Source: Catajapyx aquilonaris
Taxonomy: Eukaryota
DNA length: 20,000 nt
Assembly: GCA_000934665.2 (NCBI GenBank)
Contig: KZ538508.1
Location: 45,479-65,478 of the forward strand
Direction of reading: 5' to 3'
The notes beneath the pieces are model-generated. The model was not told the DNA's origin and searched no databases. It saw only the letters and a program-made list of their open reading frames with translations. Shown piece after piece: positions 2,758 through 20,000 of the stretch. Positions within the stretch are counted from its first letter, which is position 1. Every line of letters starts with the position of its first letter. A program made the position numbers and the translations under genes.

Positions 2758-2944
2758 CATACGGCAGGCAGAGAACTTGGTGTATTTGTTGCAAAAGTGG
2801 GGATTAGGCTATAACAGACCTCGGTTATAGTAGACTGATTTTCATGGTCCCTTGAAGGTATATCCGGTGTCTTCTATATTTACAATTTTGCTTCGTTCCA
2901 GAATATTCTAGTGCAGGATGCTATAGTAATGTACACTTCTCTTA

Positions 2945-3897
2945 CAAGGAAACATCGCCACGTGAAAATAACCCGGATTTGGCCAAAAATTGCTCAGTGG
3001 GTAAATCACATGCATAGAATTCATTGATGAGCGCAAAAAGACCCACTTCACAGCAATTTTCGAGATATGAGTTACGACACATCCGGTGCGCTCAATGCTG
3101 TTTAGATCAGCCGCCTCGTAATCTACCAGTTCCACTTTTTGTTTTTTGTTGTNNCCCCCCCCCCCCCCCCTCCCTCCCTCCCCTCGTTTTCTAGTGACGT
3201 TCTTCACCAGTTTTTGTTTTCGGCTGCACATACTGATGAATTTCAGTCTCCTTTGGCACCTGTTTTAATCTAATTACTGCAATTATCTCAACATAAGAGA
3301 TGGGCAACAAAATAATACTGGATCCTTTTTGCTACATGATGTGTTTTTCTTGTCAATGATTTGGCCTCTTACGGACTGGCACAAATGAGTCTACCTGAAA
3401 ACTTGTACCTTCCCCTGCACATGAAAAACTGCATAACTTGGAAAGCAGGAAATGTTTTTAAACATATATAGCGATTTCTTGATTTTAACCAATGTCGAAT
3501 GTTATATTTGCGTATGTATGTCGTCTGTTAATTGTGATTAAATTTGTACAAGATGGGCCCTAACACTAGTCTACCTCCCTCATGTACTTTTACCTCTCAA
3601 ACAGATGGAGATGATTTTGGATTTGGGTTCAATGCAAAATCATCTCTATTTTTTTGAGCGATCCAGTCTAGGGGAGGGGAAGGAGCAAAAAAAAAAAAAA
3701 AAGAGCAAGCGGGACCGGTGGATTACGAAGCGGCTAGGCTGCTCTAAACAGCACTGAGCGGATCTGTCGGCACTCATATCTCGAAAATGGCTGTGAAATG
3801 GGTATTTTTGCGCTCACCAGTGAATTCTACACATGTGATTTACCCACTGAGCGATTTTTTGCCAAATCCGTTATTCTCACGTCGTGATGTTCCCTTG
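2945..3897. mobile_element. Long-TIR non-autonomous element, family 'B' copy 1 (CAAGG termini, TTA TSD)
   Basis: TTA|CAAGGAAACATCGCCACGTG ... CACGTCGTGATGTTCCCTTG|TTA with about 200-bp TIRs. The interior is homologous (inverted) to 11121-11300 plus 12597-12840. Confidence 0.88.
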
Positions 3898-3903
3898 TTA
3901 GTA

Positions 3904-4063
3904 CAGTAAAACCTCAATATAATGCTTTTCAAGGGACTGACTTAAAATAGTTTTGTAAGTGGGAATTCATTACATGTGGGAAATGCTCCTTAAGGTATAC
4001 TCATCAAGGGACCAGAAAAAGGGGTATTATATGCCGGATTGTTATATCTGATAAGTTTCACTG
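3904..4063. mobile_element. Degenerate pogo/Tigger-like MITE
   Basis: TA|CAGTAAAACCTCAATATAA ... TTATATCTGATAAGTTTCACTG, with internal AAGGGAC repeats typical of Tigger-type MITEs. The right-hand TA is not preserved. Confidence 0.6.
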
Positions 4064-4175
4064 TGTATTAAAAATGAAATTAATGGGTGCAGTTTGTGTG
4101 GGTTTCCTCATTCCAAATCCTTCATATCGCAAAGTTGGGTAGGTTAACCCCCTGTCATGTTCAGGGCAGTCATAC

Positions 4176-4250
4176 AGTGTGTGTGCTGTGGGGTCTAGGG
4201 CCTATCGGCCAGGTCGACCCTTGAAGTCCCTATCTAAGTGTGTGTGCTGT
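4176..4250. repeat. 14-bp direct repeat AGTGTGTGTGCTGT flanking a 47-bp insert
   Basis: Identical copies at 4176-4189 and 4237-4250. Confidence 0.7.
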
Positions 4251-4555
4251 CACCAGCTGTATAACCAACATGTAGTAGCCCTTGGTAAAATATTGTGCTG
4301 CATCACACTAGACTTGATTTTTCTGCCTAGATGGGAGGTAAGTGAGGTCGAGACATAATGACCATCCATTATAACCACCCCCACCAAGCTCATTGTGTCA
4401 CATTTTATTCCCAGAAGGCAGAAAAAATAGACATCTCCAATATGATGCCTTTTACCAGGGACCACTGCATGTAGGTTGGATAGTACTTAGGATCAGGGGA
4501 GGATTTTAGTGTACTTTAGCGGTGCTGATACTAAGTTGATAAACATTGTTTTCAG

Positions 4556-6217
4556 ACACATTGAAGGAGCTGTTCTTGTATGACCTACTCCTCCAACGCA
4601 AGTTGCTTCGGTTTGAAGATCGCCCTTTAACTATGCTTGACCAACTCTCAGCTGGAAGTCGTGATGCTCGTGATCGCTGCCTGGTCCTCTGGTATTTTGA
4701 AGACCAGCTAAAGTCATTGTATACATTATTTCTCTCCAATTTGGATTTTTTGTCTCGTGACACTGTCGAGAAGACCAAAGTGAAAGCAGTAAGTGCCACA
4801 TATGAACTCCTGTGTGGAAACCCTGAGATGGAATTTACACTCCTTCCACGTCTGGTCAACAAGATAGGAGACCCTTTGAAGTCAGTTGGTGCCAGAGCCT
4901 TACATTGCCTGCACTGCTTGTTGAGAAAGCATCCAAGCATGAAAAATGTGGTAGTTCTGGAAGCAGAACGATTGCTATTTAGGCCTAATGTTGGTAAGCG
5001 TGCACAATATTATGGATTGTGCTTTATGAATCAAGTTGTGTTGGATCAAGAGGATACACAATTGGCCTCGAAGCTGATTGGTATATACTTCGGGTTCTTC
5101 AAAGCATGTGTCAAGACTGGTGATGTTGACTCCAAAATGATGTCAGGGCTGTTGACTGGGGTGAACCGTGCATTTCCTTATGCGGAACAGAAGTCAGACC
5201 AGATTCGGCAACATGTAGATACAATGCATAAGATTATTCACTTGGTTAGTTTCAATACAGGTGTCCAGGCATTAATGCTTTTGTATCAAATAACTGATGC
5301 AAAGGACGCACTATCTGACCGATATTATGCTGCACTCTACCGGAAGCTCCTAGACCCACGTTTGGAAAGCACATCAAGGCCTGCCATGTTGTTCAACTTA
5401 CTGTACAAATCAATTAAGAATGATGTCTCAGAACGACGGGTGAAGGCATTTGTAAAGCGTCTTCTTCAGATTGCCCAGTACCTGCCATCAACTCTGGTGT
5501 GTGGGATATTATTCCTTGTGTCAGAAGTGGTTTCTAGCCGACCCAACATTTTAGGTTTGAAAGATATTATGCCTGATGATGATAATGATGATGATGAGCA
5601 TTATAGAGATGTTGATTATGGTGATGAACCTTCACACACACCTGAACCATGCACAGAGTTGTCAACAACTTCATCGTGGAATTTTGCCAAAGGTTCTGCT
5701 ACATACGACCCATCTCAACGTAATCCATTGTATGCTGGTGCTGAGCACAGCCTAGTGTGGGAACTACAGGCCTTATCAATGCATTTTCATCCATCGGTTT
5801 CTTTAATGGCTGCCAACCTGCTACAGTCAAAGTCAGTGAAGTGCACTGGAGACCCATTGCATGACTACACCCTCATGAGATTTTTAGATCGCTTTGTATT
5901 CCGCAACCCCAAGAAAAGTTTGTCAGAGGGAAAGAAGCAAATTTTTGCTCCCAAGGCTGGACAAGCAACTGGTACTAAGGCAGTGGCAGTGACAAGTGAT
6001 GAATTTCTGGAGCAGGAGGAGGATAATGTGGCAGAAGATGATATCTTTTTCTACAGATATTTCAAGCAGAGGCAGAGATCAAGTAAAGAACAGGAAGAGA
6101 GTGATGATGAAAGTGTTGGTGATGATGAGTTTGAGAGATACTTAGACCAGATGGGTGGGAGTGGACAGCATGATGATCTAGATTTTGCATCAGATGTGAA
6201 GGAAGGAAAAAGGAGAG
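4556..6217 (+). CDS. CEBPZ: CCAAT/enhancer-binding protein zeta (CBF/NOC1/Mak21), large internal exon
   Basis: Acceptor TTTTCAG|AC and donor AG|GTAAGT. The 550+ aa open frame has CEBPZ motifs (DTLKEL, LWYFEDQLK, LVNKIGDP, LLTGVNRAFPY, RVKAFVKRLLQ, YDPSQRNPLYAGA, HFHPSV, GDPLHDYTLMRFLDRFVFRNPK). The 5' exons lie upstream of the window. Confidence 0.96.
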
Positions 6218-6508
6218 GTAAGTTTTTATACTTGCCTCTGAACTCAAACTTGCATTTGTGGTGAGAAAATCTGGGTCTGACGGGCTTGCATTTAACATGA
6301 CTGGTGACGTTTTGAACAGGAGTCAATGTAATGCAGATACATAATAACACTGAGTAACACAAAAAGTGTTTATGTTAATTTTTTAATGTTTTTTATGCAG
6401 TTCAAGTATGATGATTCCAATGTTGATTTTAGTTAATGTACAATCACAACTCTTTTTTAGTTACCTTAAATTCTTCTTATTAATGGGTCGTTCCATTTCA
6501 GATCAGTC

Positions 6509-6872
6509 CATGGTCTTAAACTACTTCGGTCTGGACACTCCCCCCCTTATTACGTAAAGGGGCTGATGGGTGGTAATGCAGTGGGGGTCACGGCAGCGCT
6601 GTTAAGGCGTCGCGACTGCCGCGAAACTGACAGGCTCCTCTGCACTTAGGTAGAAGCACATGTGTGGTGTAGGGGTATAATATTTACATATAGTTTATAG
6701 ATAAATTTACAGATAGTAATGGCTTCTACCTAAGTGCAGAGGAGCCTGTCAGTTTCGTGGCCGTCGAGGCGCCTTAACAGCGCTGCCCTGGCCCCACACT
6801 GCATTACCACCCTGTCGGACCCTTTACGCGATAAGATGGGGAGTGTCCAGACCTTAGTATTTGAAGACCATG
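6509..6872. mobile_element. Foldback MITE with CATGG termini and 8-bp TSD (P-element-like or hAT), in a CEBPZ intron
   Basis: About 150-bp inverted arms (6509-6657 versus 6722-6872). Flanks GATCAGTC and GATAAGTC (7/8 match). Confidence 0.85.
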
Positions 6873-7070
6873 GATAAGTCAATAGGTGTTGAGTCATTGT
6901 CTTCAATTGTTTTAGAGAAAAAAATATGAAACTCTCGTCCAATTTTACTCTTATGATGCAGAAGTTTTTCAAGATGAAATTTAGTTATTGAGATACTAAT
7001 ATTTATTTCAAAGTGAACCAAAATAATATTTAAGAGAAGTTGCACTTTTTCTCTTGCTTTACATGTATGT

Positions 7071-7220
7071 AGGCCTCATATCTGGAATCATTCTGGAAAC
7101 TGAAATGAAAGTTTACATACTTGTTTTTGGAATTAAGTGTTATGCAGCAATGTATGACAGTGTTTGATATCCATCCCACCTGGAATAGAGTCAGGCCAGA
7201 AACTTTTGGCACCGACCTCA
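7071..7220 (-). mobile_element. Single mariner-like end fragment
   Basis: The reverse complement reads TA|TGAGGTCGGTGCCAAAAGTTTCTGGCCTGA, resembling the TIR of the mariner at 11303. No ORF and no second end. Confidence 0.45.
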
Positions 7221-7413
7221 TATAGTGTACACTAATATTAGGGCAGTAAGATTAATTGGCCCTGGCAATTGCTAATCTGGAGTTTTAGTAGCACTTAACA
7301 CCATAAAGGATGGCTTTTGACTTCCATATTGGGAATGGCATTTCAAAATGAAAATACTGAGTCTGAAATTATTTATGACTATGGCAGTTATGATATTTTT
7401 CTGCTATTTTTAG

Positions 7414-7605
7414 GAAAGCAGAAAGATGAGGATGAAGAGGATGATGGTGATAGTGATGAGGATGCTGAAATGGGTGAGGAAGGAGATGATGGGGACCTGC
7501 CTGATGAAGGGCAGTTTGATGATGCTGATTTTGGCCCAGACAAGTTTGGTGAGGATGATTTCAAGGATGACCTGAGTTTTGATGAAGCTGAAGATGATTC
7601 AGATG
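7414..7605 (+). CDS. CEBPZ: CEBPZ acidic (D/E-rich) exon
   Basis: Acceptor TTTTTAG|GA and donor G|GTGAGG; phase 1/1, compatible with both neighbours. The D/E-rich tract is as expected in the CEBPZ C-terminus. Confidence 0.88.
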
Positions 7606-7745
7606 GTGAGGCTTTTACTTTCTGAAGTGTACTTTTGTAAATGGAATATACGGTATATATTTTACTAGCTAAATTACGATTTTAATTGTGCAAGTTTGTT
7701 GCACTGGTACTGGATATGTACAGTTAATGGCAAAATTGGTTCAAG

Positions 7746-7949
7746 GTGAAACATTAGAACCTGGATCATCGAAACGGAAGAAGAGAATGGACAAAATGAG
7801 CATCATGAAGAAGATGAAACTTGGAGGGAAGGAAACGCTGGACAATCTATTTGTGTCGGCAGAGGAATTTTCCCACACCCTGGAAGAGAACAGTGGGAGT
7901 GGAATTGACACTACAGGAATAAATGCTTTGGCCAACAAAGACAGAGCAG
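7746..7949 (+). CDS. CEBPZ: CEBPZ penultimate exon
   Basis: Encodes LFVSAEEFSHTLEEN...NALANKDRA, a conserved C-terminal motif. Donor G|GTTGGT. The acceptor is either 7746 (AAG) or 7758 (TAG); both are in phase. Confidence 0.88.
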
Positions 7950-8007
7950 GTTGGTGTATTTAGTTGTAGGTTTATTTAAATTTTACTGACCTGCATTTTT
8001 TTTCCAG

Positions 8008-8147
8008 CTGTGAAACAGCTTAACTGGGAATATACTAGGGATCAGTGGATAAGAGGAAAAGACTGGAAGTCAAGAAAACCAAACAAAACACGAAAGAGGA
8101 ACGTTCAGCCTCAAAAGAAAGGGAAGCAGGTGGCAAGAAGGAAGTGA
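8008..8147 (+). CDS. CEBPZ: CEBPZ terminal coding exon
   Basis: Acceptor TTTTTTTCCAG|CT. Encodes VKQLNWEYTRDQWI (compare the recalled KQLRWEAERDDW motif) and a basic tail; TGA at 8145-8147. Confidence 0.92.
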
Positions 8148-8700
8148 AGTAAAACTTGGTTGAGAGTAACACATTAATACAGGATTATTACAGATTTCAA
8201 ACATTTGTAGTTGTCCTGCAGAGTTTATTTTAAAAAGTGGCATTTCTCTCCATTTTACCATGAAGTTTATGAACAACAAGTTCAAGTTCTTGTGTAGTGT
8301 TGTACATGTGAACAGACATCAAATGGAAGTAGAATTTTGGATTTGTGTAGTTTAAAAAAAAAAAACTTTTGGAATCTGAACATGATGTACCGGTATGTGA
8401 TTTAGAAATAACTACTGTAAATCTAATATATGACTTTGAGTGATACAAAATAAGGGCATGCTTAATGAGTTCACACAGGAGCAAATCAGTACCGTCAAGC
8501 GGGGTTACTTAAGCCACTTTTCAATTTCAGACATCTGCCAATTCAAGAGCATTGACTTTAGAGATTAACTTATTGTTGTAAAACATGGGTCTACAGTTAC
8601 GGTCAACGTATACATGGATGAAAGTTTCCTACAACATGTATGATTTAAAAAAAAAAAAAAGGGGGTGGCTTAAGTTACCCCCTGACATGGGGTAACTTAA

Positions 8701-9207
8701 AGGGACACTCCACTCAAAATGCAAGTTGGGCTCTAAAAATCGGGCAAGAAATCCTGATTCCGAGTGTATCAGCAGTTTTTTTGAGAGACGAACGGTAAGG
8801 CCAGAGCGAGCCGTCAAAGTTAGGCAATTCGAATCTGGCGCAAAACAGCAGCGCCTCCTCCGGGACTGCCCGGGACTGGGCAGAAATTTGGATATTCTTG
8901 CGCCATCTTGATCCACGCCATGGTCCGCGCCATCTTTGGTCCGTCCCACAGGTTTATCCCGCCACCTCTTGACCCGACCCGACTTTCAGCACTGTATCAC
9001 TTTCGCCTAGTGCCCGGTGGCGGCGCTCACGGCGGTGGCGGACTGGGCTGGCGGGGCAGCTCATTAGCAGATGACGCAAATTCTGAGTCTTTAACGCCTC
9101 GTCCTGGCTTTTCTGTTCCGCGTAGAAAAAAACCGATTGCACCTTCGGAATCAGGATTTTTTGCCCGATTTTTAGAGCCCAACTTGCATTTTGAGTGGAG
9201 TGTCCCT
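8701..9207. mobile_element. Kolobok-like MITE (TTAA TSD, AGGGACAC termini)
   Basis: TTAA|AGGGACACTCCACTCAAAATGCAAGTTGGGCTCTAAAAATCGGGC ... GCCCGATTTTTAGAGCCCAACTTGCATTTTGAGTGGAGTGTCCCT|TTAA. Removing it restores the host motif GGGGTAACTTAAGCC. Confidence 0.85.
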
Positions 9208-9452
9208 TTAAGCCAGCAGGAAGAATTCAGTGTTTCGCTTATGTTAGACGGTGACACGGTAACAAAGTCCGTTCACAGGGCGAAAATAAACATTTGCATA
9301 TTGCTCCAGAAATTTATTGTTCAAAACTTAAGTTCATATAAGGGAAAGTATGGCGGCCTCTCTTTATGCTCACCGGCTGTACAGAACAAACAATATTTCT
9401 GATATGTGAACATACATTTCATCATCAACAATGCTCCCAACTAGGCAACTAC

Positions 9453-9705
9453 TAGGGCTGTGCGATATCCGAAAACATATCGAATCGAAGTCGATATATC
9501 GAAAATCGAAAAACCGACATCGCAAAATATCGCAAACCGACATCGAAAAATATCGCAAATCGACATCGAACCGACATCGAAAAATATCGCAAACTGACAT
9601 CGCGATATTCGATACATCGCACATGCCAAGCGTCGGATATCGCAACTTCGATATTAGGAAAATATCGTATCGACAGTCGATGTATCGAAATATCGCACAG
9701 CCCTA
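9453..9705. mobile_element. hAT-family MITE with internal ATCG-rich tandem repeats
   Basis: TAGGGCTGTGCGATAT ... ATATCGCACAGCCCTA. 8-bp flanks GCAACTAC and GCAACTAT. The interior is built of roughly 23-bp CCGACATCGCAAAATATCGCAAA-like units. Confidence 0.9.
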
Positions 9706-10161
9706 GCAACTATACTCTCCTGACCTCCAGAAGCTAATCCCCGCACTTCTTGCCAGGCTTGGAACAAGTGGCCTATGTTACCCCGTACATGACGCAACAA
9801 TTACTTTTTAAGAATATATTGACACCAAAATGAAAATTTATGCTATGCAGTATAACTACCTTAAAAGGACTGTTGCAGGTTATGTTTCATCATCTTTACA
9901 GCGAATTAAATTCAAACAGATGATGTTGGCGATGAAAGTTACGTAGGGTATAAATTTATGATGCAAATGATCCTAAACATAATTAAGATTTTACAAAGTT
10001 ACCTTTGACACAAACACAATTTTCAAATATGCAGTCCAAAACTGCAATAAAATATGGAACTTAACATTTCAACTCAAAACAGTGTTGCCAAAATCAGTGT
10101 CCGAAATTTACGCAGCAAAATGGCGTAAGTTACCCGGCTTAAGTAACCCCATTTGACGGTA

Positions 10162-10365
10162 AGTAATGCAAAATAATTTTTTTCGAGCCAAGTTTATTGT
10201 CAATGACAAATATTATGTATGTGACAACAAGGGACCATTTTTGGCAAATTTTCAACATATGAACTGTTTCCGTTGATGCATTGGTCCCATTGTGGCACAA
10301 GGTTAAAGATGCCGTGTTCATAGAACTATGTTTTTTGCCTATACAACCATCCGCGTGCTGCACTT
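10162..10365 (-). mobile_element. 3' remnant of a second, older mariner transposon
   Basis: The minus frame WLYRQKT*FYEHGIFNLVPQWDQCINGNSSYVEN matches the mariner transposase C-terminus. Its TIR appears to be split by the 8492-10159 element, with the remainder at about 8474-8491. Confidence 0.7.
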
Positions 10366-11302
10366 TCCAGGCAGCCGGGACAATGCTGATTAGGTGATGT
10401 CTTCTTGGCCCTCTGAAAACAGCATACACCAGTCCCCTACAACTCCCACCCCAGTTTTATGGAGACTTCCATGAGCTTAAAGAGTCTCTGCCAACCCAGA
10501 TTGGCGCTTCTATCACTGCATGGTCACCAAGACAGATTTGGGCGGACGACTTATGAACCAACCCAGACTGTTCTTTCCGCTGCAGCTGGATTCATAGCAC
10601 ATTTGCAGACTTGCCCGCCCAAGTGAGAGCCCTGGAGCGACAGAAGTGCCAATCTGAAAAATTCTACCCTCCCCAGGTAAGACACACTTCCAGCTCATTC
10701 ATGACTTGAAGATTGATGAAGAGCTGGCAGTAACAATGGGAGGGGAGTAGCAAATGGACCTTTCCACCATCATTTGGTATTTTGGTACATGTAGGGTGAA
10801 ATTCCAATGTTGTAGTGGTTTCTCACCTCTGACAAGGGAAGACCGTGACGTGTCACTAACAGATTTGGACAAAAATCGCTCTGTGGGTAACTCACATGTG
10901 TAGAATTCACTGGTGAACGTAAAAACCCACACTTCGCAGCCATTTTCGAGATATGAGTGACATCAGATCTGGCACGCTCAATATAGTGCATCCTCTTGCT
11001 CCCTTTTTAGACTTTTTATCATCATCGAAAGTGATGACCTGCCCAAGCTCACCGACTTATTCAGCCTGATGATGGTGAGTATAGGCGTTGTAATAAATAA
11101 GAGGCCCCATATAAGTGTAACGTACTGCATCGCTCAAAAAAATTAAGATGATTTTGTGTTAAATCCAAAGCAAAATCGTCTCCATCTTCTTGAGCGATAG
11201 AAGTACATAAGGAAGGTGATGTCACGTATCGTTAGTGCCCTTCTTGTACGAATTTTAGTCATACTTAATTGACGACATACCAGTCACAAACATGATGTTT
11301 TA

Positions 11303-12594
11303 CGAGGGGAGATCAAAATGTTTTGGGCCTGAGGTAGAAGGAATCAACGCACTGGGATGTACTGCCACCCAGACAAGGTGTCACTCACCATGATGACCCA
11401 TGCAAAGTTGCATCAAGATTGCTTCATCCATTCCCGACCTACAGGCCTGAGAGTGCAGTCATGTGTGAGGCCACCAGCAAAATCGAGAAATTGGAGGTGC
11501 GCGCCGTCATCAAATACCTGTGCAAGAAAGGTATGACACCGAAGCAGATTTTCCAAGACATGCAGGCGACACTGGCTGATGGTGCCCCACCTTATACAAC
11601 CATTAAGAACTGGGTTCAGCAATTTCGCTTGGGGAGAGAAGACATCGAAGACAACCCCCGCGAAGATCGTCCTGCCACTGCAACCACCCTAGAAAAAGTT
11701 GACAAATTACACGACATGGTTCTTGAAAATCGACGATTGACTGTCCATGAGATAGCTTTGTCGATGGGCATATCTTACGATACCGTACAATCAATATTGA
11801 CCGGTACCTAGGCGTTCCATAACGTCTGCACCCAATGGGTACCGAGAATGTTGATGCCAGATCAGAAGAGGACTCGAGCGCTGATTTCTAAGACGTCCCT
11901 GGCCCGGTACAAAGCTGATCCTGACAAGTTTTTGGCACAGTATGTCACCCAAGACGAAACGTGGTTACACCATTATGATCTTGAGAGCAAAGCACAAAGC
12001 AAAGAGTGGCGGCATTCAGTTCCCCTCCCCCCCCGCAAGTTCCGAGTGCGACCATGGGGGGGTAAGGTGTTAGCAAGTGTTTTTTGGGATTCGGAAGGGG
12101 TGTTGCTTGTGGGACCTGGAACATGGGAAGACGATCACAGGCACCTAATATGCTGACCTTTTGAAGAAGCTGAGGGAAGCCATCAAGGAGAAAAGGCGAG
12201 GAAAGTTGCTGCGCGGAGTGCTGCTGCATCAAGATGATGCACCTGCACATTCTTCACGTGTTGCACAGTGCGCAGCTCATGATTGTGGCTTCGAGGTGCT
12301 TCACCATAACCCCTATTCACCAGACTTGGCCCCCTCCGATTTTTTTGGGGTTTCAAAGTTGAAGGAACACCTTCGTGGGAGGAAATATGGAGGAGACAAA
12401 GAGCTGGTAGCTGCAGTTGATGAGTGGTTGGGGGGGCAGGAGCAAAACTTTTTTTTGCTCGACATCCAAGGACTAGAACACAGATGGGAAAAGTGTTTTG
12501 AGCTAGGAGGGGACTACGTAGAAATGTGACCAAATTTGGTGATTGTCATGTGAATAAAAATATCTCAGGCCCAAGACTTTTTGATCCACCCTCG
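11303..12594 (+). mobile_element. Full-length (1292 bp) but decayed mariner transposon, DD34D, irritans-like
   Basis: TA|CGAGGGGAGATCAAAATGTTTTGGGCCTGAG ... CTCAGGCCCAAGACTTTTTGATCCACCCTCG|TA, enclosing a transposase relic. Confidence 0.96.
11482..12529 (+). pseudogene. Mariner transposase pseudogene
   Basis: IEKLEVRAVIKYL (start probably mutated to ATC), WVPRML, TQDETW, LHQDDAPAH and YSPDLAPSD, with 34 residues between the second and third catalytic Asp. Frame breaks near 11810 and 12115. Confidence 0.95.
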
Positions 12595-13490
12595 TACATT
12601 TTTGAGCATCAAGAAATTGCTATGTAATTATTTTCATTCCGGCTTTCCACTTTATGTAGTTCTTCCTATGCAGGGGAAGGTATCATCATTCCAAGCCTCT
12701 ACAGGTAATGTGTCAGTGTTTAACGGAGTCCGTAAGGCGCCCATACTCGGCGAGAAACACACATGTGCCACATGACATTGAGCAGTATGTGCAGCCAAAA
12801 ATAAAACCATGTTAAGAACCTGACTAGAAAAAGGCGGGAGGGAGAAGGTGACAAAACAAGATTGGCAAATCATGTGAGTGTGATTAGAATAGACTTTTTC
12901 TCATTCTTTCAAGTATGAAACTTTATGGGTAATTTTTCCCCAAAGAAAGTAACATTGACGATGAAGTAGCCTAATTCAAGTTTAATAGTAGGCCTACTAA
13001 ATTTACAAATTGTTACAAAAGATTACAGTAGAACCCCTATTATCCGTCACGGGACTGAGGAATTGGTCTCAAACTCTGAAGTAGATTTGTGCAAATAGAG
13101 TGAACCCGGAAAACTGGAAGTGGCGGGTCACCGGAAGTTGGCCATGACACCTATTTAGGTCACATTTAATCCGAATCCGAAAACCGTATGCCACTATCTG
13201 TTGCAGTTGAGGCCCTGACACCTGTCAACAGACGGACAGACAGAGCCGTTCTAAGAGACTTTTTTTCGATGATGATAAAAAGTCTAAAAAGGGAGCAAGA
13301 GGATGCACTATATTGAGCGCGCCGTATCTGACGTCACTCATATATCGAAAATGGCTGCGAAGTGTGAGTTTTTACGTTCACCAATGAATTCTGCGCATGT
13401 GATTTACCCACTGAGCGATTTTTGTCCAAATCCGTTAGTGACACGTCATGGTCCCTTGTCTTCCCTTGTGAGTACAACCTTATAGTGTGT

Positions 13491-13844
13491 TCAATACAAA
13501 TTCGTTAGCAAACATGCTTGGATAAAATGGCCAATCTCATCCTGCTCGTAGCCATTGGTCCTCTTGCATGCTTGCAGGACAGTGTTGGCCAGGCATGTCA
13601 CACTCAAGCATCTCAAACTTTGGGTCTGTTTTCTTTGGGGCATGAAACATCTGGATAAGAGTGAAGCTGGCAGGTGAGACACGCTTTATTTTATTTTGAT
13701 TGATTGGGAAGAAGGCTTTCTCTGCATCTGTCACATTTCTTATGCTAATCACTCAACCGTGCAATGGAACACAGAGTTCTTCACCTTTGCTGTCATACAG
13801 ACCTCTGAAGGACTTGAACTCCACCAGTTGGACATTGAAGATGC
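13491..13844 (-). CDS. Two candidate terminal exons of an unidentified gene (13844-13758 and 13666-13491)
   Basis: Acceptors CCTTTTAG|GC and CTCACCTGCCAG|CT, a weak donor G|GTTGAG, and a 91-nt AT-rich intron. The phase-consistent join gives IFNVQLVEFKSFRGLYDSKGEELCVPLHASLLSRCF...HFIQACLLTNLY*. No family recognised. Confidence 0.35.
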
Positions 13845-13903
13845 CTAAAAGGACTTATGACTAGAGCAAATGTATTATGGTATATTACCATAGTTGTACT
13901 GTA

Positions 13904-13999
13904 TGTACTATGGGCGCCAAAAGAATTGACTGGAGTTGATGGGTATATAGCGCCATATACCCATCAAATCCGGTCAATTCTTTTGTCGCCCTTAGTACA
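13904..13999. mobile_element. 96-bp hairpin MITE (TGTACTATGGG...CCCTTAGTACA)
   Basis: Near-perfect palindrome with about 44-bp arms around a TAGCGCCA centre. It is flanked by TGTA/TGTA, or alternatively by an AT/AT TSD around GTAC ends. Confidence 0.8.
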
Positions 14000-14003
14000 T
14001 GTA

Positions 14004-14069
14004 TGGACATAATAGCAGTCCTCGGGCTGCCCATGCCGGAAAATTTTTAAAGGACTGCTATTATGTCCA
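14004..14069. repeat. Short foldback with perfect 19-bp inverted repeat
   Basis: TGGACATAATAGCAGTCCT (14004-14022) and AGGACTGCTATTATGTCCA (14051-14069). Confidence 0.75.
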
Positions 14070-14183
14070 GCTGTGAACAACACTAACCTTTCTTCTGATA
14101 GGCTCATTCTTTCCGTCGGATGTGTGTCTGACCTGATAGTATTGCTTTCTCTCGCACTACCTGAGTGTGGCGGGAGTGTACAA

Positions 14184-14402
14184 TGTACACCCGCGAGCAT
14201 AAAAATGGAGACGGCAGGCCCTCACCTTCGGCAGGCTGCTCTGCCAATTGCAGCTATTACGGTAGCAAATATACTGTCATAAATACACGAACACACGCAT
14301 GATGCAGCTAACTTGGTCCCAAAAGAGTTCATTAATTTGAGTCGGATAAAGAAAGGTCAAAAAAGGGCCTGCCGTCTCCATCTTTATGCTCGCGGGGGTA
14401 CA
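14184..14402. mobile_element. MITE with ~38-bp TIRs (TGTAC...GTACA)
   Basis: TGTACACCCGCGAGCATAAAAATGGAGACGGCAGGCCC ... GGGCCTGCCGTCTCCATCTTTATGCTCGCGGGGGTACA. Confidence 0.82.
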
Positions 14403-15210
14403 TAGTATGAAGTATGTGCCATCTATGCATGAAGATTAGTACTATGTGGTAAATTGGCGGGCCATCTCATTAAAGTCTTTTAATTGTCACTGTAATACTG
14501 ATTAATTATAGGTTTTGCCCAATTTTGGCAATTGCTTCACTAGTTAATAATATTTACACAGTATGCAACACCCTCCTTGCACGGCTGTGGACGTAGTACC
14601 AGATCTCTCACCTATATGTCACGTGCTGCACACTACTGATGATCCCCGCGGTCAAATAGAGGCACAAACACAAATCAATTAGATGTCCTGATTAGGCAGT
14701 TTGAAGCGATATATTCGCTGACCTCCATGTCAAACATAATTGTGGCGGTTATGTAAGCTGAGCAAAGGTCAGGATATTTCGATAGCATATTGTACTGCAG
14801 TTTCTAAATCATAGCATTAATGAATTGAATGAATTCAATATAGAGATACACTTAAAATTCAGTCAGTGTGCATCTTGTTTTATTCTCACACACAATGCTA
14901 ATCAGGTACATGATAATTTCAATGTCAAAAGCTAAAAAAAAGTTTCTAACTCCAGCATCAGGAACAAAATCATGAACACAAAAAATCTAACTTAAAACAT
15001 GTCGTACTTTTTTTTAAACTACTTTGTACTTCAGGCATAATAATTGTAAACTGTTAAACTGCATGCTTGCAAAGCAATGACTGGTCGACTGGTTGTGCCT
15101 CCACTTCTGACGGGTCATGCTGGGTCACGTCCTTGGTGTAAACATGGCTCACGAGACAATCTCCTGCCTGCAAGCAGTTCAGTTAATAAAAGCACAATGT
15201 TGTCATACCT

Positions 15211-15343
15211 GTGCCCGATTGCACCAACCAAAATTACAGATCCGATAGCTCCTAATGGATCGTTAGGAGCCCTAGCTTTTAACGTGTCCTATCTATCTGT
15301 TAGGAGCTATCGAATCGGTAATTTCGTTGGTGCAATCAGGCCC
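15211..15343. mobile_element. PIF/Harbinger-like MITE in the last SMC1-like intron
   Basis: GTGCCCGATTGCACCAAC...GATAGCTCCTAA versus TTAGGAGCTATCG...GTTGGTGCAATCAGGCCC. The TSD is not clean. Confidence 0.7.
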
Positions 15344-15503
15344 TAGTGTCCTTACATATGGCGCTATCCCGATAAGAGAGTCTGCATGGCTGTACAACTC
15401 GCTCTTCAGAGAGTTGATGATCACCTGAACTGACTTGCTGTTATCGCAGATGTAGTTGGCCATCTTACTTATATTGGGATTGTCAAGAGACACGTCAATC
15501 TCA

Positions 15504-15733
15504 GGAAAGACTAACCCTTACTGGCGTGCGGAACGCGGCATGGGGAGTGGTGGCAGCTTGGCTATGTCGCAAAGGCAGATTGATTTTTTGGATTTTGGAA
15601 GGGGTATGCTGTACCAACCTAACCTAACCTTCCTTCCTTGCGGATATACAGACCTATCTTAGCGACACAGCCCGCTGCCCCCACCAACTACTACCCTCCT
15701 GCCTCCCGCACGCCAGTAAGAGCAAGTACAGCC
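15504..15733. mobile_element. 230-bp TIR element (MULE-like) with perfect 8-bp TSD, inserted in the SMC1 Walker B codons
   Basis: CAATCTCA at 15496-15503 and at 15734-15741. GG...CC ends, imperfect TIRs sharing CTTACTGGCGTGCGG, and internal AACCTAACCTAACC. Confidence 0.9.
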
Positions 15734-16639
15734 CAATCTCATCCATCAGCAGCAATGGGGTAGTTGGGTTGTCATACTTGGACAATTGAAAAGGCTACGT
15801 ACACTAGGCAACTAGCATGTCGTATAACTGACTTGTGTATGGCGAACATAAGTGCGAGAGCAGTAAGTGTCTTCTCACCTCCGGACATGTCGCTCACAGA
15901 GAAGAACCGCTTACCTGGAGGGATGCAGGTGACCTCAATCCCATTCAGGTATGGCTCTTCTGGGTTTTGTGGAGCCAAAAGAACCTGGGCTGAATCGTTC
16001 CTACACAACACCTTAAAAAGTGTCTTGTACTGAATCATTGCCATAAAATGTCAAGTGTAAGTGCAGCTGCTTCAGCCAAGTATCAAGTGCAGCTTTGTAT
16101 TTTACAGAACAAGAGCACACCTTGTATATCTTGTCAAGCTCTGAAATAGTGTGGTCGAAACATTGCATGAAGAGGTGATGTCGTCTCCTTGACTTTTTCA
16201 AAGTCCTCCTTGGCCTTACGGACTGCCCTACAAGTGTCCTTAAATTCCCCCATGGCCGTGTTCATCCTTGCTTGGGCCATGCGCACCATTTCCTCCGCCT
16301 GAAAAATATGAAACAATTCAAACATGTCCTCCTATGGTATGCAATGATTGACTAACCCGCATGTTCGGAACGTATGAGTTGTTGAATAGTCGTTTCAGTT
16401 CTGTGATCTCGTAGGAAAGCATGTATCTGACCTCTCTGAACTCGTCTTTTCCAAGAAGTTTGTTCTCATCTAGCAATGTCGAGTAGTCTATCACTATCCT
16501 GTAACAAAATTCAAGTTGGCTGAACCAAGAGCTGATAATAGCAAGTAGAAACTAGGGAGGTTCCTTGTGGATACCCTTTACGTTAGGCCTATAAAATTAT
16601 TCTAGCTTTTTTATTTTCTCTAACATTATCCTCCATCCT

Positions 16640-16980
16640 CCCGAAAAAGTAAAAATAAGCCAAAGTTTGTCACTATCTGTGATAGATTACCTGCTTCGGT
16701 AATAGCATAGTCGATGCAGATATGCTGATTGGATGTGTAAAAAGAGGAATGTGGATAGAGTTTGCCCAGGAAAAGACTGCACAGCCATGTGTTTTGCTGA
16801 AATATACGTACCGCTACCTTTACCAGCACCCCAACATACCTGGACAACGCCGGGTAAACCCACGGTTGTTTGTAAGTTTGTAAGTAATATACCACTGCCA
16901 TAAAGAATAAAGCCAATTTCTGCACAATGTCAGTTGAAGTTACCAGATCGTAAAATTTTGCCCCCAAAGAGTGTGAGACT
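16640..16980 (-). mobile_element. Possible heavily decayed non-LTR retrotransposon APE endonuclease fragment
   Basis: Across different minus frames, KILRSGNFN*H (GDFN-like) and SFYTSNQHICIDYAIT (TF..S.IDY-like) occur in the expected order. Weak motif-only evidence. Confidence 0.3.
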
Positions 16981-17235
16981 TGTCCTTAATTGTCAAATTA
17001 ATTAGTGTGAATATGTGGTCAGGTAGCCTGGTCAAACAAACAAAGCAGATTTGAATTGACAGTTAGGAGCAGCTTTGAGTGTCTGCCACCAGGATCACTA
17101 GTGTGACAGGAAGTGGAAGTGGTGGGCTGCATTACACCCATTGCATTGGACCCATCCAATTTTCTCCAACCTTACCCCATTGTGCTGTGTTGGATAAGCC
17201 CAACCGTGTGGAAGATAACCGGTGAAGAGATCAAG

Positions 17236-18818
17236 ATGGAGGCGCAGACCATGTATAACTTGATACAGGCTATGAATGCATTCATGGATGGACTATCGGC
17301 ATTCATGGATGGACTGTCGCCCCTCATGTGGTTCGGACAACCTTCCCGATGTCTAGTCCAGCAGATGACTATGCGGACTCAGATTTTGGAATCCATGAGT
17401 GCCATGCTTGCAGGGATTGAGAGAGACATGGCTGCCATGGCCAGAATCGTGGTATGAATCTAAACCTTCTACTCTCTTATGTCTTAAGGCCTGTGAAGCA
17501 TTTAGCTTAAACCCAGTTTAAAGTAGCATTGCAACATATGGCACAAATTATGTTTACCACGGATTCTTTATTTCGCAGCTGGAGAAAAGACGTTCACGTA
17601 ATGCAGGGGCAGGCCCTGCAAATGTGGGTGAAGGCGGTAGTGTTGGGCAGCAACCTTTGATGAAATCCGTTGGCACTCAGACCGATGTAGTTAATGATGG
17701 CGAAGAGCCAATGATGGTTTCAAGCAGTACCCAAACTTGTTATACTGATGTTCCCAAGCCACCAGATGCTGAGGTTAGAACCGAAAAAAATTCATTTGTT
17801 GTGTAACTTTGAATCACCTGCAGATGATTATTCCTTGTGAGGAGGGGAACTTTAGGCTGCATTTAAGCTGCGTTTACATGTTAGCGATTTATCAGCGATA
17901 TTGCAGCAATGTTCTATCGGGTTCAAATACTTTTGGCCACTTGATCCTGGTCTTGAAGCAACCCTTCGCACAGACCCCACGTTAAGGAGGTGTGTGTGTG
18001 TGTGTGGACGCGTATTGCTATCCTTGTGAGGAATTTTTGACGCGTTTTTCCTATCCTTGTGAGGAATTTTGTCATTACGAGGTAGTTTTCCTGTACCTCA
18101 TAGTGAACACATGCCTCACAAGGATAGGGAAAAATCGAAAAATACCTCATAAAGACAGTAAAAATATATTTCACCAAAATTTCGTGTTTCCTTGTAGGTT
18201 AGGTTAGTTTTAAATTTTGGAAAAACCTCTCAAGGATAGGAATGTGTGTGTGTGTGTGTGTGTAAGGGTTGCTTCAAGACCAGGATAAAGTGGCCAAAAG
18301 TATTTGAACCCCATAGTACATCGCTAAGCAAAAGTAATAATGGTGGTAACTATTTATTTTTGCTCCAAGCAATTGGTCCCATCGCTCATTGATGTATATT
18401 GCTGATAAATTGCTCGCATGTAAACGAGGCTTTACATGTGAGTGATTGGCTCAGCCATGAGCATCACTGGGCGATGAAACCAATTGTTTGAGGCAAAAGT
18501 AACAATCAGTTTTTGCCCCCAAACCAAGTGAATCACTCACATGTAAACACAGCCTTAACCTGCTTCTACCACATTCAATGACCATGTTCCTTGAGTTGTG
18601 AAAATGAGCTCTTGCTCTTTATTAAGATGAAGTTGGGTTTAGGGTACTGTGGGGGAAGTGTTTGGCATCCATAGTATTGACTACTGTTTCTTGTTGTTAA
18701 GGGTGAAATGCAAGAGAACATGGAAACGGAGGAAGCCATCGCATCCCCTAAAGATGGACCCGGCATGAATGGAGATCATGTTAAGGGAGCAGTTGGTGGG
18801 CAACCACAGCTTAATTGA
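17236..18818 (+). CDS. Candidate spliced orphan gene (exons 17236-17451, 17579-17773, 18702-18818; about 175 aa) with two TQT motifs
   Basis: AAGATGG start; junctions GTG|GTATGA, TTTATTTCGCAG|CTG, GAG|GTTAGA and TTGTTGTTAAG|GGT, all phase 0 and stop-free to TGA 18816-18818. An alternative acceptor exists at 17824. No family recognised. Confidence 0.5.
17911..18319. mobile_element. Foldback MITE with AT-flanked GT(A/T)C ends (third layer)
   Basis: AT|GTTCTATCGGGTTCAAATACTTTTGGCCACTTGATCCTGGTCTTGAAGCAACCCTT ... AAGGGTTGCTTCAAGACCAGGATAAAGTGGCCAAAAGTATTTGAACCCCATAGTAC|AT. Confidence 0.8.
18007..18242. mobile_element. (TG)n-flanked element with repeated CTATCCTTGTGAGG motifs (innermost layer)
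   Basis: TG runs at 17991-18006 and 18243-18263. The motif is direct at 18018 and 18051 and inverted at 18114 and 18226; internal AGGTTAGGTTAG. Confidence 0.7.
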
Positions 18819-18979
18819 TTCTGGATCTCACAAGGTATCCTTTGGAAATTATCTAAAGTAACTGGTTGTCAGTCATCTGGCTAGTGGATAATATTCAGAC
18901 AATTTAACTGCTGATATATTCAAAGTTTAATCAATACCTTGAAATGACATTAATGCATCTCTTTGCCTCTCGGGTGCTG

Positions 18980-19255
18980 GGTTCAGTTCAGTGGGGCTTA
19001 ACATCAGCCTATTTCTGCCTCTAAGGCTCAACACCGACGCCAGGGGGTGGTCCTCCTCCTGGAAATTTGGCCACTCTGGGGATCTTTAACATGCACTCGC
19101 GCAATGTCACAAGCACACGGCTTTACTTCCCCTCCGAACTTCCCCCCTCTCACTTTTCTACCACCCGAAGAAAAGTCACCGACCTTGGCCGGGTTCGAGC
19201 CCACAACCTTGGGACCAGAGGCGAGCGCGCTAACCACTAGTCCACCAAGGCCGGC
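18980..19255 (-). mobile_element. Full-length tRNA-derived SINE with 16-bp TSD
   Basis: Minus strand: A box TGGACTAGTGG, B box GGCTCGAACCC, a central GGAGGGGAAGTAAAGCCG...CATGTTAAAGATCCC (Nin/Deu-domain-like) and a (CTGAA)n tail. TSD TGCCTCTCGGG(T/C)GCTG at 18964-18979 and 19256-19271. Confidence 0.93.
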
Positions 19256-19905
19256 TGCCTCTCGGGCGCTGCAAACGCACAGAAAGTGTGGGCCATGTTG
19301 ACCTTGCAATTTATTAACTTATTTTTTTCAAATTCCATGCTCTCATTGAGTATTTTCTGTCAATAATGTTGTAATTCGTACTATCCCCTCTAATTTCATC
19401 TAACTTCATGGACGTACTTCGTCAACAAGGGGTCAAGTTACTGCTTGTGACATAGGTCTTTTTTGGCAAAACCTACCTGGGACGTATTAGTGTATCAGTG
19501 CAACCAAAAAGATGATGCTTAATCACAAAAATATCAAAGAGTTCCCTGGAATCTATGCCTGAATATATCGGTAGCAGAACTCCAAGTACTGCAAGTCACA
19601 TCTGAAAACCAGTTACTAGACCTTGTCTTGAGTTGCCTCCACTCCTGTAATTAATAACCAAACCTGCAGCATATTTTTGTTCAGGATATACTCGTACATT
19701 CAGCAAGCTTGTAGCATGTAGTTTTATATGCTGGCTGCTGCAGAAGTACCTGTCATGATTGCTAGTGAAGGTTTCTCATGCTAATTATTGTGCCAAGGAG
19801 GGCACTGCTTCTGAGACATAAAATTGTGTCGGAATCAGTTTCATGAGGTGTCCCTTCACTCAAAGGTTTTACCAAATATCATTAGAATGAATTAAGAGGA
19901 CTATA

Positions 19906-20000
19906 CAGGGTGATCCAACTCTGTGGCACCAACAGTTATTGGAAAAATCAACAAGCTGCTTGTTTATAAGCAGGTCGTTGCTAAGAGATCAATAAGAGTT
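19906..20000 (+). mobile_element. Probable left end of a Tc1/mariner-type element running off the window
   Basis: TA|CAGGGTGATCCAAC, the same terminal heptamer as the element at 465. Confidence 0.45.

Follow-up and report, generated by a model that had tools for sequence, protein, structure and literature searches.

A disabled and strongly diverged SMC1-type gene relic in Catajapyx aquilonaris

Introduction

Duplicated SMC1 genes, and truncated and dispersed copies of them, are already known from Daphnia pulex through those sections of Schurko et al. (2009; PMC2680839) that describe them, and against this background the subject of the present work, a broken SMC1-type gene piece in the genome of Catajapyx aquilonaris, is an ordinary gene relic. 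It lies at 15054-16498 of the window, by which we mean the whole stretch of 20,000 nucleotides analysed here (GenBank assembly GCA_000934665.2, contig KZ538508.1, positions 45,479 to 65,478 of the forward strand); all positions below are counted from the first letter of the window. An earlier, sequence-only reading of the window had taken this piece for a highly diverged SMC1 paralogue of an invertebrate, one that had long been shaped by selection before it was inactivated.

According to the same sections of the Daphnia study, D. pulex has two SMC1 duplicates, SMC1A and SMC1B, which arose independently of the vertebrate duplication, and nine truncated, dispersed copies, SMC1C to SMC1K, of 50-306 residues and mostly untranscribed, called there pseudogenes or truncated proteins (PMC2680839). 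The likeness to our locus is that of an arthropod with extra short pieces of SMC1. Unlike the D. pulex pieces, as they are portrayed there, the relic includes the C-terminal ATPase head (264 codons in five exons); it is also very divergent and carries two frame breaks and a miniature inverted-repeat transposable element (MITE), a comparison in which the Daphnia copies are known by their description (PMC2680839).

A second parallel comes from sawflies, where the portion of a recent study that deals with SMC1 (2026; PMC13239252) reports sporadic, lineage-specific SMC1 duplicates on long branches, in which its authors see remnants of old duplications nearing pseudogenisation. Those duplicates, as presented in that portion, are annotated full gene models in insects, whereas the relic is a broken 3′ piece (PMC13239252). 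Its host, judged by the neighbouring CEBPZ gene alone, falls outside the sampled insects and copepods, unlike the sawflies. The third parallel is the meiotic SMC1B of vertebrates, which is likewise a second SMC1, and the motif LCRNDSAQ is common to the relic and the SMC1B rows of our alignments. Unlike vertebrate SMC1B, however, the relic is broken, is not its orthologue and sits with arthropod-type rows.

Results

The relic consists of five exons with short introns, on the minus strand from 16498 to 15054, colinear with the C-terminal ~260 residues of SMC1, and its six pieces fall in order on positions 973-1221 of a profile built from ten SMC1 proteins. Exon A (16498-16357, minus strand; acceptor AG 16500-16499, donor GT 16356-55; profile positions 973-1029) holds the end of the coiled coil, IVIDYSTLLDE...YVPNMR, and is matched by the library protein P0207 at E 2.5e-4 (tblastn). 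Exon B (16298-16121, minus) reads AEEMVRMAQ...FEKVKE and then, past an extra base at 16184, RHHLFMQCFDHTISELDKIYK in another frame, the two frames covering profile positions 1021-1060 and 1058-1082. Exon C (16011-15832, minus) has 60 codons starting with VLCRNDSAQ, holds the signature (C) motif and ends in a damaged donor, followed by intron C/D (15777-15831, minus; 55-56 nt). Exon D is in two parts, both on the minus strand: the first (15776-15734) carries Walker B and ends in the right-hand copy of a target duplication (15734-15741), whilst the second (15503-15356; donor GT 15355-54), (EI)DVSLDNPNISKMANYICDNSKSVQVIINSLKSELYSHADSLIGIAPY, carries the D-loop and the H-loop region. Exon E (15167-15057, minus; profile positions 1201-1221), AGDCLVSHVYTKDVTQHD (AGDCLVSH)...KHAV, closes with the stop codon TAA at 15056-15054. 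The introns measure 58 nt (A/B), 109 nt (B/C), 56 nt (C/D) and 188 nt (D/E, 15168-15355), and those between A and B, B and C, and D and E are of the GT-AG type. Read through its breaks, the relic gives 264 codons and no stop codon.

The best solved relative of exon C is human SMC1A, whose chains it matches at E 5.6e-20 to 3.8e-19, as against ~1e-10 for fission-yeast-type SMC1 and prokaryotic SMC and 1e-7 or worse for SMC4; all strong matches of this exon in large protein collections are of the SMC1 or SMC1B type. Pfam SMC_N (PF02463) is found in exon C at 25 bits and in the second part of exon D at 37.6 bits, each being a domain fragment scanned singly and the gathering cut-off of the family being 40 bits. 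To judge by these matches, the piece at 15054-16498 is the C-terminal head of an SMC1-type protein with the end of its coiled coil. The signature (C) motif MSGGEK, Walker B LLLMDE and the D-loop D-V-S-L-D are present, but they are changed at normally fixed places, and a MITE separates Walker B from the D-loop. The altered motifs stand in the relic as DMSGGEK, PLLLMDEI with DVSLD beyond the insert, VIINSLK and TCIPPGKRF. The sequence-only reading is borne out on all of these points, namely the five exons colinear with the SMC1 head (here by the SMC1A matches, SMC_N and the SMC1 profile), the four substituted motifs and the reconstructed frame without an in-frame stop.

Three lesions interrupt the relic. 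The first is one extra base at 16184 in exon B, between the codons GAG (16187-85) and CGA (16183-81), which is exactly the base at which a frameshift had been suspected; once it is taken out, each residue of ...KVKE-RHHLFMQCF finds its counterpart in the ...VKK(E/R)RY.LF..CF of other SMC1s. A micro-intron at this place was considered and ruled out, the GT..AG pairs there spanning just 6-9 nt. The second lesion lies at the junction of exons C and D (15833/15776), where the spliced frame is one base short: the only GT, at 15832-31, leaves two codon bases, and the only usable AG, at 15778-77, is followed by TAT GAC. The probable second frameshift of the earlier reading, at 15760-15776, is real and is now placed more exactly, at this splice junction. 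The third lesion is a 230-bp insert at 15504-15733, between ATG GAT GAG ATT G and AC GTG TCT; with the insert and one copy of the duplication removed, ATG GAT GAG ATT GAC GTG is rejoined and M-D-E-I-D-V-S-L-D restored. Among the GT-AG pairs that could splice this exonic insert out, none restores the frame, and splicing by the single in-frame pair would leave 23 extra residues between the glutamate of Walker B and the D-loop.

The insert has every mark of a MITE, being short, non-coding and high-copy, with terminal repeats and a target duplication, and the transposon insertion claimed from the sequence can now be named as such. Its terminal inverted repeats are imperfect and 28 nt long, with 20 of the 28 positions matching, and the 8-bp target duplication, CAATCTCA, is perfect (15496-15503 and 15734-15741). 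Duplications of 8 bp are typical of hAT and of some other superfamilies. Read depth over the insert is in the thousands, compared to ~20-35 for the unique flanks, and one contig (15709-16604) crosses its right end. A second MITE, at 15213-15341, is 129 bp long, has terminal inverted repeats of 20 nt and an inner palindrome, and likewise shows depth in the thousands, with loose contig ends at 15212 and 15341; it lies inside intron D/E, which would measure ~59 nt without it, and is harmless. At ~50 bp upstream of exon A begins a further high-copy repeat, which occupies 16547-16700 and beyond, with contig depth of 4,000-16,000.

Support from reads was sought in Logan contigs over 14900-16700, from three DNA runs (X1, X2 and X3) of one sample, which may be the sample behind the assembly. 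The span 15709-16604 is reproduced with 0 differences and 0 gaps (record 8 of X1, records 15-16 of X2 and records 19-24 of X3), and this span holds the first two lesions and the right-hand junction of MITE and exon; the contig pieces listed leave the left MITE junction and 15388-15448 uncovered, with no depth in any run over the latter. Contig depth over the SMC1 part is ~21-28, against ~31-37 in the unique flanks. Assembly error is thereby excluded for the covered span, and since independently assembled contigs reproduce it letter for letter, both frame lesions and the right MITE edge included, the relic is a pseudogene and not an artefact of assembly. Run X3 also contains a minor haplotype (depth 5.5 vs 14.3) that differs at 16001, 16014, 16036 and 16052, within 52 bp; through one of the changes the conserved Arg of ..CRN.. 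is replaced with Met, and through another the acceptor context ttaag becomes ttcag.

The place of intron C/D is informative on how the copy arose. Out of 129 library gene models of SMC1, 58 stop or turn to junk there, after ..AIH+R, and the site is therefore a widely conserved intron position of SMC1. Because its introns are kept, one of them at this conserved position, the relic is a duplicate made at the DNA level and not a retrocopy; a processed pseudogene is ruled out by the four introns. The GC content at third codon positions is 0.595 in the relic vs 0.384 in its introns. A second SMC1 copy was looked for in the window with the relic's own peptide and DNA, and none was found. Weak tblastn matches of the library proteins P0235, P0297 and P0219 at 19.4-19.8 kb were examined as a candidate second copy and set aside as noise, neither the peptide nor the DNA of the relic matching anything there.

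Compared with 21 SMC1 rows, the reconstructed peptide (264 residues, the breaks being filled with X) shows an identity of 33-43 % to each of them, where ordinary rows mostly reach 47-62 % among themselves, and its end branch measures 1.4-1.7 in three trees, against medians of 0.44-0.5. Low identity and long branch together uphold the earlier description of the relic as highly diverged. The relic lies outside the vertebrate SMC1B clade in the careful tree of 25 rows (clade support 100/99), as it does in the quick trees, and an orthologue of vertebrate SMC1B is thus ruled out. The careful tree has a clade of nine rows (89/89) in which the relic stands together with the rows carrying RFQxMSNLSGGEKT, and it has the motif YSHAD.LIGI in common with them. 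We infer that the relic derives from an arthropod-type SMC1 gene, because the neighbouring CEBPZ gene falls within arthropods, because of the 89/89 clade and because of the common YSHAD.LIGI.

Within that clade the relic is sister, at 88/79, to the divergent library rows P0194, P0235 and P0268. Residues exclusive to the relic and the divergent group number 4; three equally large control groups have 1, 3 and 5. The divergent SMC1-like proteins of the library (P0194, 1052 aa; P0297, 1118 aa; P0241, 1220 aa; P0235 and P0268) have open reading frames. They resemble the relic in carrying a similar load of changes at conserved columns, and have in common with it CI.PGKR, S.S before SGGEK, GGEKTL and SLK.EL.

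No close relative was found by exon C among 5.8 billion proteins, a collection thin for invertebrate genomes, where the best match has 67 % identity, nor among 1.84 billion representatives, where the best again has 67 % and 118 matches reach E 1e-10 or better. The second part of exon D gave 13 candidates, none of which scored, and hence no close relative, and a search of metagenome contigs gave 384 pattern matches and just 1 weak locus (23 residues, 52 %). The two top-ranked multi-stretch matches of exon C among the representatives, P0171 (4622 aa, with 13 matching stretches) and P0291, were rejected as false positives, being unrelated repeat proteins; their repeat resembles the 30 residues around the signature motif.

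Traces of past selection were looked for in the frame and in the distribution of changes. Under random mutation, the probability that 264 codons acquire no stop is 0.30 at a neutral amino-acid change of 10 %, 0.165 at 15 %, 0.068 at 23 % and 0.015 at 30 %. The mean BLOSUM62 score of the relic's 18 changes at conserved columns is 0.28, whilst random single-base changes average -0.26 (sd 0.36; P 0.077). Small indels that break the frame number just two. New residues occupy 18 of the 84 conserved columns (0.21) and 48 of the 159 variable ones (0.30). In the 17 ordinary SMC1 rows these fractions are 0-0.14 (0-0.08 without the fungal row) and 0.06-0.20, and in six divergent library rows, three of which are of 1052-1220 residues, they are 0.12-0.19 and 0.24-0.38. 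Split by conservation class, new residues make up 22, 21, 29 and 33 % in the relic and ~3, 5, 13 and 16 % in ordinary rows.

The neighbouring gene gives an idea of the host. An exon of CEBPZ/Mak21 at 4543-6264 on the plus strand, tail to tail with the SMC1 relic, is open over 573 codons and apparently intact; its product contains the CBF domain (E 1.3e-42) and is 40-50 % identical to animal CEBPZ proteins. The gene probably continues in 7299-7963 (plus strand). A quick tree of 38 rows puts it inside arthropods with a support of 99, and within a set of 14 rows that includes copepods and insects (95) it forms a separate branch. Its branch of 0.58, compared to a median of 0.37, is not unusually long. 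The placement is a broad one, coming from one gene and a short tree search, and puts the host among mandibulate arthropods, in agreement with the invertebrate host supposed earlier.

The rest of the window is crowded with MITEs and inverted repeats. A mariner/Mos1-type transposon occupies 10841-13453, with terminal inverted repeats of 190 nt (93 %) at 10841-11030 and 13264-13453, between which lie transposase reading frames that are broken up over three frames (11338-12529) and match HTH_48 and Transposase_1. At 345-2547 long inverted repeats are nested together (131 nt, 91 %; 120 nt, 93 %; 111 nt, 97 %; 41 nt, 100 %); they are probably stacked MITE or foldback elements, and the reading frames there are without Pfam match. 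A palindrome at 13903-14000 has a perfect centre and arms of 49 nt, 90 % complementary and without spacer. On the plus strand, 17107-17806 contains a pair of open frames, of 116 and 94 codons respectively, without Pfam match and possibly a transposon remnant; the longer one contains a 21-bp tandem duplication (17278-17328). The reading frame at 2908-3264 has XX in its translation, which points to a short run of N near 3150. Scans with Rfam and for tRNAs and tandem repeats gave nothing that bears on the SMC1 relic.

Discussion

That the relic is inactivated by three lesions is an observation. As read from its sequence, it would give no product, any transcript meeting a premature stop, and even a product read through the breaks would miss, within the window, the N-terminal head, the hinge and most of the coiled coil. 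The role of SMC1 is an essential one, and because of this we infer that a working SMC1 must lie elsewhere in the genome. The reading that we prefer, and to which we give an even chance of being right, is that the locus is the non-functional relic of a second SMC1 copy, represented by its last five exons, which was once constrained and then killed. Its history would have begun when an SMC1 gene of arthropod type, complete with introns, was duplicated at the DNA level. For part of the time that followed, the copy might perhaps have been kept open under relaxed constraint, meanwhile reaching a divergence like that of the intact, divergent SMC1-like proteins of other animals. Later it would have been disabled by the insertion in exon B, the loss of a base at the C/D junction and the arrival of the 230-bp MITE just after the Walker B glutamate. 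The open frame and the kind of change that it has undergone would lean towards some past constraint, as would the GC content at third codon positions, higher than that of the introns, and a past as a working second SMC1, with a germline role perhaps, is possible. The long evolution under selection proposed by the sequence-only reading, on the other hand, is not demonstrated, given a stop test at P 0.068-0.165, a conservative bias at P 0.077 and changes spread almost evenly.

Several results weigh against past constraint, and they do so in favour of a partial duplicate that was dead on arrival. Here the 3′ end of the canonical SMC1 would have been copied, the differences would be neutral drift amounting to ~17-23 % amino-acid change (~10 % of bases) and the frame would be open by luck, a history whose probability is considerable whilst short of even. 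The ratio of new residues in conserved to those in variable columns is 0.71 in the relic, 0-0.46 in ordinary rows and 0.45-0.57 in the divergent intact rows, and the first of these values would be expected from a uniform neutral layer of roughly 17-20 %. In the same way, the relic exceeds ordinary rows in new residues by a similar margin in every conservation class, as it would with such a layer, and no single test of constraint falls below P 0.05. The probability of finding no stop, 0.165-0.068 at 15-23 % neutral change, is not small either, and the changes at invariant columns are mostly single transitions (A>V, M>V, A>T, V>I).

The extent of the copy points in the same direction. Neither the profile nor tblastn with twelve SMC1s finds upstream SMC1 exons on the minus strand over 16500-20000, as the sequence-only reading had also reported, with the qualification that exons of the coiled coil are weakly conserved. 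In particular, no exon for the N-terminal head (Walker A), the hinge or the long coiled coil is found on that strand over this span, and such exons could lie farther off or beyond the window. The known introns of the relic are just 56-109 nt long, yet no exon is found in these 3.5 kb upstream, and a distance of 50 bp separates exon A from the high-copy repeat above it. The missing exons fit a copy that had been incomplete from the outset; with introns so short, either a partial copy or an intron bloated by transposons is likely. A precedent exists in D. pulex, where 6 of the 9 truncated SMC1 copies, as listed in the sections cited above, are C-terminal coiled-coil pieces (PMC2680839). Where the changes fall and what is missing upstream would thus lean towards drift of a partial copy.

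Against this partial copy, and for the once constrained one, it can be said that the weak tests agree in direction, there being no stop, only two frame-breaking indels and a bias of P 0.077. Moreover, the profile of the relic is also matched by divergent SMC1-like proteins that are complete or almost complete in length, and the changes in the relic go only slightly beyond those in the divergent library rows. This raises the matter of what these proteins are. P0194, P0235, P0241, P0268 and P0297 may, from their sequences, represent a second SMC1 lineage in some invertebrates. A tentative proposal, which we consider doubtful, is that arthropods have an old second SMC1 lineage of their own, which arose independently of vertebrate SMC1B and is still intact in other species as proteins of the P0194/P0297/P0241 type, and that the relic is a dead member of it. 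The join of the relic with P0194, P0235 and P0268 may be a case of long-branch attraction, its exclusive residues being no more frequent than those of the control groups, and that no intact orthologue turned up in the protein and metagenome collections speaks weakly against our preferred reading, these collections being thin for invertebrates.

The odd motifs could also have been inherited, and would then reveal nothing about the copy, if the canonical SMC1 of this lineage were unusually divergent and the relic a young dead copy of it. MSGGEK or CIPPGKR do occur in other SMC1-like proteins of the library (P0241, P0272, P0282 and P0268). The neighbouring CEBPZ gene, however, does not sit on an unusually long branch (0.58 vs 0.37), and ordinary SMC1 rows change 0-8 % of the conserved columns, as against 21 % in the relic, and we hold such a parent to be improbable. 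More improbable still is that a transposon captured the gene fragment and carried it along, as a passenger between flanking repeats. The window is indeed dense in MITEs and inverted repeats, and high-copy repeats lie near the upstream end of the fragment and within it, but the SMC1 part is single-copy, at a depth of ~21-28 like that of unique flanks, no terminal repeats bracket 15054-16500 and the window holds no second copy. Finally, that this could be a working gene, or the sole SMC1 of the genome with lesions that are errors of sequencing or assembly, has the open read-through frame and nothing else in its favour and can be dismissed, as a different assembler gave 15709-16604 exactly, from three DNA runs and at the depth of unique flanks, and no in-frame GT-AG splice takes the 230-bp insert out from behind the Walker B glutamate.

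The relic of a once constrained SMC1 copy, as we prefer to see it, has little weight alone: in a genome rich in transposons it adds another decaying copy of a gene. We recommend annotating it as a pseudogene, lest it be counted as a second cohesin subunit, and it shows clearly, on a small scale, how a MITE can land among the catalytic codons of an ATPase and leave a perfect target duplication behind. If a conserved second SMC1 lineage of arthropods did exist, it would bear on how frequently meiosis-type cohesins originated outside vertebrates, and would mean that extra, possibly germline-specific, SMC1 subunits arose and vanished repeatedly in invertebrates.

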